In this document: piece by piece, positions 12,801 to 32,866 of the stretch
Layout of the letters: the number at the start of each line of letters is the position of its first letter
How positions within the stretch are numbered: position 1 is the first letter of the stretch
Sequence record: PQ438048.1
Length of the DNA: 64,000 bases
Reading direction: 5' to 3' (one strand)
Source: Escherichia phage MirsaeidiM_Esher1
The notes under the pieces: generated by a model
What the model saw: only the letters and a program-made list of their open reading frames with translations
Databases searched by the model: none
Told to the model about the DNA's origin: nothing
Program-made: the position numbers and the translations under genes

Positions 12801-15476
12801 TTAGTCGTAATATTTCAAACCTGTAATGAACTTCGATCCCCAATCCGCACTTGCGGCGGTGAACGTCAACATCCAAGTTGTAGCTGTACCAGTGAAGACC
12901 TCTCGCTGCACAGTACCATCAGTGTGGTAAATGTCTACGCCAGTATGTCCATTCTTAGGAATAGTGAAGGTAACAGCACTGGTAGTGTCTCGTGCATAAG
13001 AACAAACAAATGGTGTCCCCGCCCAAACTGGATTTGTCATATCACCCATCTCAAGCTGTGGAACCCAAGCAATAAGACCTGCCGTACCATCTCCTGCGAA
13101 AGTGTCTGATCCACTTGCATTCAAAGCTATAATCTCATAGGTTATAGATGCTTGTTTGGCAACTGTCACTTTGTGTAGAATTACACGATACCAACCATTC
13201 CCCATATCGATTATGTTTGCATCTGCACCTGTAAATGTTCCAGCTACAAGATCATAAGTCCCTTCGTTAATCTCGTCTCCTGAAGTCAATTTGAGTTTCA
13301 CTTTAGTGATCCCGTCTGGCTTCAAGAATACGGATGCCGCCCAGTGCTTACCTGCTGTAATATCAGAAGCTGTATTCACTGCTGATAAAATATGTTGTCC
13401 TGAAGTTGTAGAAGGTGTTAACTTGTAAGTGTTAGCCGTAGTTCCAACCGGAGAGTTGATTGTTGATGCTGTGACTGTCAAGTTCGTCTTCAACCACGGG
13501 GAAGCTGTTGTCAAGTTATTGTTGATAAAGATATGTGTACGGTTGGCTGCTACAACACGTCTACCTTGTGGAGTTGTACCAACATATTCTAAAGGTGCTA
13601 CGGGAGCAGAACTCTCTGTAGGTACAAGGATATCTCCAGAAGCCCTGGCATAACGGTTACTCCTGTTGACCTTTACATCCGCCGGAATAGTTTCTTGCGT
13701 CAAATCATAGTCCATCACAATCACCACAGCATTCACTGTGAGATAAGAACTATCTTCGGCAGTTACCACACCTTGATAAGTTGCTCTACAACCGATACGA
13801 CAACCTCCATCAGCAACCGCTGTAATAACGCCTGTAACGGGGTCAACTGTTGCTACCGTAGGGTCATTAGAGAAATACTCAACAACCATACCAGGTAAGC
13901 TTGCTGCTCCTGTTGGCGTTATTTCTGCTACCATTGTTTGTGTTGTTCCTACATCCATCGCAGATAAGCTAAGAGTGTAAACGCTCAATGTTGAAGCATA
14001 TCCTCCAGAGGTATCTGATAAAGTTGTTCCTTCAGCGTTTAAGGCTGTCATACCTGCATCAAAACCACCTTCTGCATGGAAAGTCATTAAACCAGTAGAT
14101 GATATTGTCATGTTTGCAGGGGCAGAAGAAGTGTATTTAATATTGAAAAGTTTACCTCCTTCTGGGCTAACAGAATGTGTCAACTGTTTAGTTCCACCTA
14201 CAATACAAATTCCTAAAGAACCTGTAGTTAAGCCAGTTGCCAGAATATCACCCGTAATCACGGAGCTTGCTATTGGTGTGAATTTATTATAGTTTAGACC
14301 ACTATTGAACAGATACGAGGCTTTCCCATCTTTCCAAATACCGGAATAATACATATCTCCATTATAAACGAAAAAGGTTCCTTGATAACCTAATTGGTTA
14401 GTAACATCCATATTCAGCGTATGAACGCTTGTGAGCTTGTTTATATCCCAAGAACCCACTCCTTCAGGTTTAACTGGTTTTCCCACTTGGAGTGGATCTC
14501 CGCTCGCAGAATCATACCCCAAACCTAAGTTTGCAGTGTAGTTCTTACCAATAGCCCACAAGGAATTATTGATCCCAACGAAAAAAGAGTGGCGGCTTGG
14601 TGGAAACTTCCATGTTGAGAAACCTGCTGCAAAGGTATCCAGTTTAGTGTAGGTTGTTTCTGTATTAGACCTAACATATAAGTAGTTTACCGTACCCGTA
14701 CCACCGGAGGTATCTCCTACAACTATTGTCTGGGAAACTGTATTGATGTAATCTTTGACATACACTGTTTCAGTAGTGGATATCGTGGCATTGACAAAAG
14801 CGGTTGTTGTGTTATTATTACCTGCTAAACCTTTACTAGCTCCACAAACACGCAAGGTTCCCACATTGTTGACATAAGAGCATTGGTTGTAACCTGCATC
14901 AAAAGCAACTGCTGCGCTTGTTATCTGACGAGGAGTAGAAACTTCGTTAGTAGTACTTGCACCTAAACTACCTACTGTGTTTTGACCCGATCCATAAAGA
15001 ACACCACTATTCATTAACCAGAGAGTATTGTTATACCCTCCTTTAACCTCTTTAAGATTGGCTAAAGAAATAGTCCCTGTTATTACAGATGGAAAGCTGG
15101 TCCAGGTAGTTACACATGCATCCGTACCACCTGCTGCTATAGATCCTACCAACCCTGCTGTCAATCCTGAATATTGCCATCCCCCACTGTTAGTTTTAAT
15201 AACAAAACAACGATCTGCGGTAAACACATCCGCTACTACAGTAGAAGCTAAGTGGAAATTATTGAATCGTGCACTACGAGTTCCATCTGCAATCTCACCA
15301 AAGAGGTTTGCGCCTTGAGTAAACAATCTACCATCATTAAGCAAAATTGCTAAACTGCTGTTAGAATTACCAGCATTATCTGGGTAATCTAAAGTGATTA
15401 CTTTTTTAACAATACCTGCTGGCAGAGGAACGACACCAGTGCTGGTCATAATAGTAAATATTGGAATTGGAAACAT
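12801..15476 (-). CDS. tail fiber protein
   Basis: 891 aa Ser/Thr/Gly-rich protein at the distal end of the tail fiber module. Confidence 0.55.
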   Translation of the reverse strand: MFPIPIFTIMTSTGVVPLPAGIVKKVITLDYPDNAGNSNSSLAILLNDGRLFTQGANLFGEIADGTRSARFNNFHLASTVVADVFTADRCFVIKTNSGGWQYSGLTAGLVGSIAAGGTDACVTTWTSFPSVITGTISLANLKEVKGGYNNTLWLMNSGVLYGSGQNTVGSLGASTTNEVSTPRQITSAAVAFDAGYNQCSYVNNVGTLRVCGASKGLAGNNNTTTAFVNATISTTETVYVKDYINTVSQTIVVGDTSGGTGTVNYLYVRSNTETTYTKLDTFAAGFSTWKFPPSRHSFFVGINNSLWAIGKNYTANLGLGYDSASGDPLQVGKPVKPEGVGSWDINKLTSVHTLNMDVTNQLGYQGTFFVYNGDMYYSGIWKDGKASYLFNSGLNYNKFTPIASSVITGDILATGLTTGSLGICIVGGTKQLTHSVSPEGGKLFNIKYTSSAPANMTISSTGLMTFHAEGGFDAGMTALNAEGTTLSDTSGGYASTLSVYTLSLSAMDVGTTQTMVAEITPTGAASLPGMVVEYFSNDPTVATVDPVTGVITAVADGGCRIGCRATYQGVVTAEDSSYLTVNAVVIVMDYDLTQETIPADVKVNRSNRYARASGDILVPTESSAPVAPLEYVGTTPQGRRVVAANRTHIFINNNLTTASPWLKTNLTVTASTINSPVGTTANTYKLTPSTTSGQHILSAVNTASDITAGKHWAASVFLKPDGITKVKLKLTSGDEINEGTYDLVAGTFTGADANIIDMGNGWYRVILHKVTVAKQASITYEIIALNASGSDTFAGDGTAGLIAWVPQLEMGDMTNPVWAGTPFVCSYARDTTSAVTFTIPKNGHTGVDIYHTDGTVQREVFTGTATTWMLTFTAASADWGSKFITGLKYYD

Positions 15477-32866: not shown

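Follow-up and report, generated by a model that had tools for sequence, protein, structure and literature searches.

The adsorption apparatus of phage phi92 is multivalent and was reportedly described by Schwarzer et al. in 2012 as a 'Swiss army knife'. The genes of this apparatus encode hub and wedge proteins of the baseplate together with several fibres and spikes. Cryo-EM of phi92 revealed three types of fibres per baseplate wedge: fiber I was inferred to be gp143, fiber III was identified as gp147, and gp145 forms the attachment platform of both (PMC13450770). The phi92 endosialidase, EndoN92, whose activity is described in the phi92 record and the same study, fits only the distal tip of the L-shaped fibre (PMC13450770). 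Phages phAPEC8, ESCO5 and REC encode an endo-N-acetylneuraminidase which is 96-96.7% identical to EndoN92 (PMC5374246, PMC10269720). The locus, its endosialidase and the link to a broad host range have already been published for phi92, phAPEC8, ESCO5 and relatives. Because of their broad host range, such multi-spike phages are both a subject of research and in use against pathogenic E. coli with capsules, among them K1 strains and avian pathogens.

Layout of the locus and its relation to phi92

The DNA analysed here, referred to as the window, comprises 64,000 nucleotides of Escherichia phage MirsaeidiM_Esher1 (PQ438048.1). In a first-pass annotation, seven large ORFs of the same orientation were described, which lie within and distal to the baseplate module. 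The ORF listing agrees with this: the seven large minus-strand ORFs of 353-1017 aa (891, 674, 1017, 353, 921, 717 and 958 aa, in coordinate order) are present between positions 12801 and 32866, and the boundaries of the block coincide with those claimed. They are interleaved with the genes for two baseplate wedge proteins of 495 and 209 aa, and the placement relative to the baseplate is therefore right (Table 1).

Table 1. Features of the adsorption locus (positions in the window)
Position	Strand	Feature	Evidence
12770..12797	.	Hairpin terminator	11-bp stem then T run; terminators of both strands in the ASO2A record
12801..15476	-	891-aa protein (phAPEC8_00180 type)	Pfam WD40_RLD/RCC1 and Big_2
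15496..15515	-	Hairpin resembling a terminator, separates the 674-aa and 891-aa genes	Rho-independent terminator at the corresponding site of the ASO2A record
15518..17542	-	674-aa collagen-repeat tail fibre, phi92 gp151 orthologue	Pfam, PHROG 15437 'tail fiber protein'
17604..20657	-	1017-aa tailspike, gp150-type	PDB 6E0V, Tail_spike_N, PHROG 6117
20661..20996	-	111-aa phi92 gp149 orthologue	PHROG 15210 E=4e-70; 76% aa identity; database name 'lipoprotein'
21006..21551	-	181-aa tail-fibre assembly chaperone for short fibre	Caudo_TAP E=3.3e-13; PHROG 136 E=1.5e-41
21552..22613	-	353-aa short tail fibre (phi92 gp147, 'fiber III'; Mu GpS-like)	PHROG 4465 'tail fiber protein', E=1.7e-106
22623..23252	-	209-aa baseplate wedge subunit (phi92 gp146)	DUF2612; PHROG 4056 'baseplate protein' E=6.8e-81; 87% aa identity
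23255..24742	-	495-aa baseplate wedge subunit (phi92 gp145, P2 gpJ-like)	Pfam Baseplate_J, PHROG 6, 80% aa identity
24742..25005	-	87-aa small membrane protein, phi92 gp144 orthologue	PHROG 1322 'membrane protein' E=4.5e-26
25054..27819	-	Endosialidase precursor, 921 aa	All five endosialidase Pfam domains and PDB 4HIZ
25054..25542	-	Predicted C-terminal intramolecular chaperone (Peptidase S74), aa 760-921 and stop codon	Pfam, PDB 3GW6
25543..27819	-	Predicted mature endosialidase, aa 1-759	Pfam domains, PDB 4HIZ E=0
27828..29981	-	717-aa phi92 gp142 orthologue	Calx-beta, NCTSP_N domain, N4 gp64-homologous TIM barrel
29990..32866	-	958-aa phi92 gp141 orthologue	Predicted (alpha/alpha)6 glycoside-hydrolase-like barrel
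32866..33339	-	157-aa small 'tail fiber' protein, phi92 gp140 orthologue	PHROG 9017 E=2.7e-68; 83% aa identity

When the whole 20 kb were compared, the block was 99.2% identical at the DNA level to ASO2A, 99.1% to PNJ1809-36 and 98.1% to phAPEC8. Dozens of sequenced phages match it over its whole length at 96-99%, and every ORF has strong homologues (PHROG E-values of 1e-106 to 0), which rules out chance as an issue. The remainder of the window is 98-99% identical to Phapecoctavirus. Judged by DNA identity, the window is that of a Phapecoctavirus, a phAPEC8-like contractile-tailed E. coli myophage; phAPEC8, ASO2A, PNJ1809-36, ESCO5 and REC carry essentially the same locus (97-99% DNA identity) and differ from it at the strain level only. 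A bacterial or prophage locus was also considered and rejected, as genomes of lytic Phapecoctavirus phages match the whole window at 98-99% identity. The hairpin at the low-coordinate end of the block marks the point where the late (minus-strand) and replication (plus-strand) gene blocks converge. A scan for sigma-70 promoters yielded 52 sites, while 54.9 were expected from shuffled sequence; since such sites are no commoner than in shuffled sequence, no conclusions on promoters were drawn.

The gene order is colinear with gp136 to gp151 of phi92, running from the hub and spike genes through gp139-gp144, gp145/gp146 and the short fibre with its chaperone to gp149-gp151. Fourteen of the 16 window proteins queried match phi92 proteins in the same order with 60-97% aa identity, the exceptions being the chaperone and the 891-aa protein. 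The two wedge proteins are 80-87% identical. By homology and gene order, the region is a phi92-type multivalent adsorption module of the Stephanstirmvirinae, gene-for-gene orthologous to phi92 140-151. It differs from phi92 as follows: the 1017-aa spike corresponds to a gp150 of 804 aa and carries extra N-terminal domains of the CBA120/G7C type, the tip of the short fibre and its chaperone are different, and gp152 and gp153 are replaced by the single 891-aa protein.

With a probability of roughly 92%, we read the region as the receptor-recognition part of the Phapecoctavirus late morphogenesis operon, which would place several glycan-binding or glycan-degrading proteins on one baseplate. The proposed mechanism is that different receptor-binding or glycan-degrading proteins, each presumably present in the virion, are mounted together on a single baseplate. 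The interpretation given in the first-pass annotation is supported; its statement that multi-spike sets are associated with a broad host range is also made in the phi92 literature (PMC8594841, PMC11984140, PMC13450770). The set was called unusually large, which holds in comparison with phages in general but not within the Stephanstirmvirinae and Vequintavirinae, where such sets are the norm. The annotation had minor omissions, namely that the set is typical for its lineage, the 157-aa gp140-like protein and the assembly chaperone (21006-21551). At the position of the 87-aa protein, a CDS is annotated in the ASO2A and ESCO5 records.

Spikes and fibres with known counterparts

The beta-helix-like member of the set was correctly recognized: the 1017-aa protein is homologous to the gp150 tailspike of phi92, whose structure (PDB 6E0V) matches aa 427-1000 (E=1.5e-78). 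TSP1, TSP3 and TSP4 of CBA120 and gp63.1 of G7C match aa 226-399, and the Pfam domain Tail_spike_N was found at aa 302-361. While aa 1-215 are 75% identical to phi92 gp150, identity drops to 33% for aa 455-1007. By these matches, the protein is composed of an anchor shared with gp150, CBA120/G7C-type N-terminal tailspike domains and a gp150-type, putatively enzymatic body. It may be a polysaccharide-acting member of the set. Colanic acid has been suggested as substrate by PHROG 6117 ('colanic acid degradation') and by record annotations; this label is weak since the enzymatic part is only 33% identical to gp150, and the substrate could be another one.

The 674-aa protein, which had been described as collagen-like, indeed matches the Pfam domain Collagen (E=4e-12). 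It opens directly with a Tail_spike_N docking domain (aa 12-77, E=1.3e-19), its aa 557-671 resemble a phiTE tail fibre (PDB 9CUY chain g), and it is 60% identical to phi92 gp151. This collagen-repeat fibre would be a further member of the set. Tail_spike_N is common to the 1017-aa and 674-aa proteins and to the tailspikes of Ackermannviridae phage CBA120 (TSP1-4) and of G7C (gp63.1/gp66; 4OJ5, 5W6F, 5W6H, 4QNL). In those phages, branched tailspike complexes are formed, whereas the rest of the apparatus is phi92-type here.

The 353-aa protein matches the 'short tail fiber' of phiTE (PDB 9CUY chain c, E=6e-23). Its aa 1-267 are 74.5% identical to phi92 gp147, and its distal tip, which differs from that of phi92, gave zero matches. 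The 181-aa chaperone has diverged from phi92 gp148 as the fibre tip has (49% nt identity), and a tblastn search with the chaperone against phi92 gave zero matches. Published work on relatives suggests that such a Mu GpS-like short fibre may act as a binder of the LPS core.

Enzyme-like proteins and the number of fibres

The 958-aa protein is 83% identical to phi92 gp141. Its model is predicted to adopt an (alpha/alpha)6 barrel fold (GH8/GH76/GH105-like), which is broken up by beta-sandwich domains, and its sequence identity to known glycoside hydrolases is 9-14%. The acidic residues D64, D294, E296, D333, D336, E388, D750 and E913 are invariant. We read it from the model as a baseplate-peripheral enzyme-like protein, and as an (alpha/alpha)6 glycosidase-like member of the set it is so far a prediction; this fold-level assignment of a gp141-type protein is a modest addition to the published picture.

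The 717-aa protein is 76% identical to phi92 gp142 and contains the Pfam domains PF23845 (E=5.9e-79), PF23844 (E=3.2e-16) and Calx-beta (E=9.3e-11). It matches N4 Gp64 (PDB 9LC0 chain M, E=2.9e-30) and has the NCTSP_N domain and the gp64 TIM barrel in common with N4 gp64/gp65 (PDB 9LC0, 9YF4). These are non-contractile sheath proteins in N4, whereas the 717-aa protein belongs to a contractile-tailed phage. The name 'non-contractile tail sheath' is a label inherited from N4 gp65, and a role as sheath is not expected. In published work, the protein is treated as the conserved glycan-targeting 'deacetylase' tailspike, and its homologue in related phages has been connected with the NGR glycan, which depends on wecB/NfrB.

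A second modest addition of this analysis comes from fusion proteins found elsewhere, which link gp141-like modules with gp142-like ones and both with the baseplate wedge. In a P2-like prophage, one protein combines a gp141-like module with the wedge domain of P2 gpI, and in an SU10-like podophage a gp141-like module and gp142-like NCTSP and TIM-barrel modules form one protein. In appearance, both the 958-aa and the 717-aa protein are closer to enzymes at the periphery of the baseplate than to trimeric fibres of the classical kind.

The first-pass annotation counted seven fibres or spikes. For the 891-, 958- and 717-aa proteins, this assignment is putative. As there are three cryo-EM fibre types per phi92 wedge, the seven proteins need not all be separate fibres. 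In an alternative reading, which we regard as possible but less likely than not, the number of genuine receptor-binding fibres or spikes among the seven is just four or five. The 958-aa and 717-aa proteins would then be structural arms or adaptors of one composite fibre, such as the proximal part of the L-shaped fibre with the endosialidase, and their enzyme-like folds would serve as catalytically inactive scaffolds. The three rather than seven fibre types in phi92 are in line with this, as is the restriction of the phi92 endosialidase to the distal tip of the L-shaped fibre, whose arm is without an assigned protein (PMC13450770). The genes for the 958-aa, 717-aa and 921-aa proteins adjoin and are tightly packed, the fusion in the SU10-like podophage points in the same direction, and the 958-aa model is without identified catalytic residues.

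The 891-aa protein begins with an RCC1-like propeller of seven blades. Two Big_2 Ig domains follow, and a flexible linker leads to a beta-sandwich at the C-terminus. The AF2 model has a pLDDT of 75, with low to moderate confidence for the C-terminal domain. A Foldseek search with the whole model mainly recovered the RCC1 propeller (UVR8 and RCC1 propellers, E about 1e-15) and added nothing for the C-terminal domain, for which the sole lead is a sequence match of aa 615-831 to the RcGTA 'head spike fiber Rcc01080' (PDB 6TB9, E=5.5e-14). The match to phi92 is confined to aa 411-587 and lies in gp152. The N-terminal two-thirds are conserved among relatives and the C-terminal third is swapped; ESCO5-type phages, for example, carry a different one. 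We read the protein as a candidate adhesin, whose C-terminal binding domain would be exchangeable.

It is quite possible, though on balance not our favoured view, that the 891-aa protein is not a tail fibre but a decoration or adhesin of the head, neck or tail tube, comparable to Hoc or the RcGTA head spike. In addition to the Rcc01080 match, there is homology between its Ig region and gp152 of phi92, for which the record notes a 'lambda protein V like fold', and neither Pfam nor the AF2 model gives a recognisable fibre anchor, coiled coil or trimerisation motif. The gene is located at the very end of the operon, behind the terminator-like hairpin. However, PHROG 11922 and RefSeq name it 'tail protein', even though these names are without experimental basis, and conserved N-terminal two-thirds followed by an exchangeable C-terminal third are what one would expect of a receptor-binding protein, irrespective of its site on the virion.

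For the 958-aa and 717-aa proteins, a further idea is supported by the fusions to the wedge domain and to the NCTSP/TIM-barrel modules: both could together form the phi92-type 'fiber II' or the proximal arm of the endosialidase-bearing L-shaped fibre, i.e., a two-enzyme, baseplate-anchored glycan-processing arm. We consider this rather unlikely. The 2026 cryo-EM study of phi92 lists gp15, gp140, gp150 and gp151 as candidates for fiber II, and gp141 and gp142 are absent from this list (PMC13450770). As with the substrates other than polysialic acid, the assignment of proteins to fibres is inferred.

The endosialidase and exchange of its gene

The product of 25054-27819 was proposed to carry two sialidase Asp-boxes and a C-terminal self-cleaving chaperone like that of K1 endosialidases. 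Both Asp-boxes are present (SGDDGQTW at aa 192-199 and STDLGENW at aa 454-461), and the catalytic beta-propeller domain was recovered by HMM search, with End_beta_propel covering aa 143-600 (E=5.1e-213). The mature part consists of an N-terminal anchor, an N-terminal extension (End_N_terminal, aa 76-142), the six-bladed beta-propeller with an inserted beta-barrel (End_beta_barrel, aa 259-341, E=4e-38) and a tailspike stalk (End_tail_spike, aa 603-759, E=6e-63). It is followed by Peptidase_S74 at aa 760-819 (E=1.5e-12), and the endoNF chaperone domain (PDB 3GW6) matches aa 663-921 (E=1.7e-70). The protein matches PDB 1V0E and the phi92 endosialidase (PDB 4HIZ, E=0); it is 96.6% identical to EndoN92.

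E425, R440 and R491 align with Glu581, Arg596 and Arg647 of endoNF, reportedly the catalytic residues of that enzyme (Stummeyer et al. 2005). The autocleavage pair is kept as well: S760 and K765 align with endoNF S911 and K916, and the phi92 record annotates a mature peptide and a CTD at the equivalent site. Two residues of the endoNF stalk region, S848 and Q853, are not conserved in the alignment. EndoNF of K1F (PDB 1V0E, 3GVL, 3GW6) and the enzymes of K1E and K1-5 share the domain architecture, the catalytic residues and the self-cleaving C-terminal chaperone, and K1F gp17 is 53% identical over 96% of the length. The N-terminal anchor, in contrast, is unlike that of the K1 podophages, fitting a myophage baseplate here and a T7-like tail there.

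On these grounds, the 921-aa product is a complete tailspike endosialidase of the endoN type (GH58) that carries a self-cleaving chaperone of the S74 family, the chaperone domain being predicted to be released by cleavage before Ser760. This domain would assist folding and trimerisation of the spike before its removal at Ser760. The 96.6% identity to EndoN92 suggests a trimeric state and cleavage of alpha-2,8- (and alpha-2,9-) linked polysialic acid; the spike would thereby depolymerise polysialic acid capsules, which are K1 and K92 for the phi92 enzyme. That the gene is an inactive relic in a phage that does not act on polysialic acid, as the reported independence of ESCO5 from K1 might suggest (PMC5374246), is highly improbable given the full-length ORF, its identity to a biochemically characterised enzyme, the conserved catalytic triad, the two intact Asp-boxes, the conserved Ser/Lys pair of the cleavage site, and the retention of the gene in 48 phage records with no less than 95% identity.

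The endosialidase gene is 96.4% identical to that of phi92 at the nt level, whereas its neighbours reach 49-79%. By this difference, it is a laterally exchanged cassette; its clear exchange between two genera as a precise unit is the third modest addition of the present work. In phages of the ESCO13 and anhysbys types, the same slot holds another protein: in phage anhysbys, a GDSL esterase follows an identical 54-aa N-terminus. In phage 536P1, the slot is occupied by a different S74 spike. Host range would be retuned by cassette swaps on conserved N-terminal anchors, and knowledge of the cassette in each slot would predict it.

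The adsorption locus and its phi92 counterpart

The seven large ORFs of 353-1017 aa that the first-pass annotation had placed in one orientation were found on the minus strand at exactly 12801-32866 (891, 674, 1017, 353, 921, 717 and 958 aa), and ORFs of 495 and 209 aa and several small ORFs are located among them. The annotated record of phi92, a related phage of the genus Justusliebigvirus, and tblastn searches revealed that the block is colinear gene for gene with phi92 genes 136-151 (see table), and every feature of the phi92-type module that can be tested in a sequence is present. 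It is the phi92-type adsorption locus known from the literature as the 'Swiss army knife' (Schwarzer et al. 2012, cited in PMC8594841, PMC11984140 and PMC13450770). For the 891-aa protein, the tblastn match to phi92 is confined to the Ig region (aa 411-587), which is 62% identical to gp152, and there is no full-length counterpart. In phi92, the place of the 891-aa gene is occupied by gp153 (22096-22983 of the phi92 locus L003), which has a weak Pfam match to sialate O-acetylesterase (SASA, E=0.0079) under the curated cut-off.

The 20-kb block shares 99.2% DNA identity with Escherichia phage vB_EcoM_ASO2A, 99.1% with PNJ1809-36 and 98.1% with phAPEC8, and at least 80% of it is covered in 53 phage records. 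Since the block and both window flanks are 98-99% identical to Phapecoctavirus, the window is assigned by sequence to a strain of this known genus (subfamily Stephanstirmvirinae), a lytic contractile-tailed phage of ~150 kb. The remainder of the structural operon is likewise located inside the window, and the tRNA cluster lies within the range of 10-13 tRNAs reported for the genus (PMC6563267). A strong hairpin terminator is present at 12770-12797, exactly where the replication genes of the plus strand meet the late genes of the minus strand; the GC skew switches sign at the same site and a second time near 56000.

Features of the window, with phi92 counterparts or Pfam matches (aa identity unless marked E)
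Feature	Position	Counterpart or content	Identity or E	Role
Replication genes	1-12737, plus strand
137 aa		phi92 gp136	74%	plug
336 aa		phi92 gp137	83%	hub
244 aa		phi92 central spike protein	73%	spike
208 aa		phi92 gp139	74%	sheath initiator
157 aa		phi92 gp140	83%	small 'tail fiber' protein
958 aa		phi92 gp141	83%
717 aa		phi92 gp142	76%
921 aa	25054-27819	phi92 gp143 (EndoN92)	96.6%	endosialidase
End_N_terminal	aa 76-142 of 921-aa protein	Pfam
End_beta_propel	aa 143-600 of 921-aa protein	Pfam	E=5e-213
End_beta_barrel	aa 259-341 of 921-aa protein	Pfam
End_tail_spike	aa 603-759 of 921-aa protein	Pfam
Peptidase_S74	aa 760-819 of 921-aa protein	Pfam
87 aa		phi92 gp144		small membrane protein
495 aa		phi92 gp145	80%	wedge
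209 aa		phi92 gp146	87%	wedge
353 aa		phi92 gp147	74.5% over aa 1-267, tip without match	short fibre
181 aa		phi92 gp148	no tblastn match	fibre chaperone
111 aa		phi92 gp149	76%
1017 aa		phi92 gp150	75% over aa 1-215; 33% over aa 455-1007	tailspike
674 aa		phi92 gp151	60%	fibre
Ten-tRNA cluster	52656-54739, minus strand	Met x2, Ile, Pro, Gln, Gly, Thr, Asn, Ser, Arg

By homology with phi92, the proteins of the block would be mounted jointly on the baseplate periphery, and one particle would thereby carry several alternative glycan-degrading or glycan-binding tools; we infer both the joint mounting and the division of labour from orthology. The earlier reading as an unusually large set of seven tail fibre and tailspike genes is supported overall; however, such a set is usual in this lineage, and three of the seven proteins are only unproven candidate fibres or spikes.

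The endosialidase and cassette exchange

An endosialidase-like spike with two Asp-boxes and a chaperone of the K1 endosialidase type had been proposed for the 921-aa protein. Both boxes could be located (SGDDGQTW, aa 192-199; STDLGENW, aa 454-461), and the C-terminal chaperone was confirmed by its Peptidase_S74 domain and a match to 3GW6, the chaperone domain of the K1F enzyme (E=1.7e-70). The protein matches all five endosialidase families of Pfam as well as the solved structures of the endosialidases of phi92 (4HIZ, E=0) and K1F (3GVL and 1V0E, E about 1e-236). In an alignment with the K1F endosialidase endoNF (gp17), E425, R440 and R491 correspond to E581, R596 and R647, and S760 and K765 to the autocleavage pair S911 and K916. 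The phi92 record annotates a mature peptide and a released C-terminal domain at the position equivalent to S760. Every sequence-level feature that defines the endosialidase family is found, and endosialidase activity and the trimer state are very likely because of the 96.6% identity to the characterised enzyme; the 921-aa protein would clear capsules of the K1/K92 type. EndoN92-like endosialidases with 96-96.7% identity are encoded by phAPEC8, ESCO5 and REC (PMC5374246, PMC10269720), and the enzyme was suggested to explain why ESCO5 and REC have a wider host range (PMC10269720).

Different genes can occupy the endosialidase slot: in phage anhysbys, a 691-aa GDSL-esterase protein with identical first 54 residues is encoded at this position, and in phage 536P1 a different 749-aa S74-chaperone spike. 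The endosialidase gene shares 96.4% nucleotide identity with phi92 gene 143, compared to 49-79% for the other orthologous genes that were aligned and 74-76% for the immediate neighbours. This high-identity block extends from ~25000 to 27940 and comprises the gene and about 100 nt upstream; its sharp boundaries indicate that the whole gene was recently transferred as a precise cassette between the genera Justusliebigvirus and Phapecoctavirus. In the 891-aa protein, the N-terminal two-thirds are conserved and the C-terminal third varies among close relatives (12801-13726; megablast yielded no match for it in relatives of the ESCO5 type). Protein-database homologues also keep the N-terminal two-thirds and have diverse C-termini, some with PF03382 domains. 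The C-terminal third is a putative second swappable binding module, and the two cases show how the adsorption set gets retuned.

The N-termini of the 921-aa (27705-27819) and 157-aa (33217-33339) proteins look alike by eye, both with the motif hydrophobic-x-x-L ... D-x-D ... V-x-D-Q ... K-x-T/S, which may be a shared attachment motif.

The other large proteins

The 1017-aa protein matches the gp150 structure (PDB 6E0V, E=1.5e-78), shares an N-terminal anchor with gp150 and is, as judged by these matches, a gp150-type tailspike. An extra segment (aa 226-399) has homologues in the N-terminal domains of three CBA120 tailspikes (TSP1, TSP3 and TSP4) and of gp63.1 of G7C. 'Colanic acid-degrading' is a database name for an unverified, putative specificity, the enzymatic part being 33% identical; spikes other than the endosialidase would act on other exopolysaccharides. 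The 674-aa protein contains Tail_spike_N at its very start, collagen repeats and a terminal domain resembling that of the phiTE tail fibre. In the 717-aa protein, a Calx-beta domain and an NCTSP_N domain are combined with a TIM barrel that has a homologue in gp64 of phage N4. This type of protein is the conserved 'glycan deacetylase' tailspike described by Sellner et al. and in the BASEL paper, which also report that Vequintavirinae, phi92-like phages and N4 depend on wecB/nfrB (NGR glycan) (PMC8594841, PMC8669472). The predicted model of the 891-aa protein (pLDDT 75) consists of a seven-bladed RCC1-like propeller (Foldseek: UVR8 and RCC1, E about 1e-15), two Big_2 Ig domains, a disordered linker and a beta-sandwich; in sequence, the latter matches Rcc01080, the head-spike fibre of RcGTA (E=5.5e-14). 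The domains of the six large proteins other than the endosialidase thus bear out the descriptors 'beta-helix-like, glycan-hydrolase-like or collagen-like', with a gp150-type spike, an N4 gp64-like TIM barrel and collagen repeats among them.

The 353-aa protein is the short fibre, followed by a Caudo_TAP chaperone; its type is Mu GpS-like (PMC8594841), and gp147 is 'fiber III' in phi92 cryo-EM (PMC13450770). It would make the final contact, thereby triggering contraction (PMC13450770; PMC8594841). Compared to phi92, the tip (aa 268-353) and the chaperone have both diverged (21006-22613; no tblastn match; 49% nucleotide identity for the chaperone gene) and the shaft is 74.5% identical, which suggests that tip and chaperone were exchanged together.

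A possible composite arm of the 958-aa and 717-aa proteins

A 2026 study of phi92 lists gp15, gp140, gp150 and gp151 as 'fiber II' candidates; gp141 and gp142 are not among them (PMC13450770). In P0088, a homologue of the 958-aa protein in a P2-like prophage (L008, 8001-11294), the gp141-like module with its predicted (alpha/alpha)6 fold is fused to the end of a P2 gpI wedge domain, and the gene immediately follows those of gpV, gpW and gpJ. In P0101 of an SU10-like podophage (L007, 6691-11364), the module is fused to gp142-like NCTSP_N and TIM-barrel domains, and the gene immediately follows the adaptor gene. Through these fusions, the gp141-like module is connected with the gp142-like module as well as with the baseplate wedge. 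It is tempting to speculate that the enzyme-like 958-aa and 717-aa proteins are joined in a single composite arm and are not two separate fibres, which is the sole mildly novel lead of the analysis.
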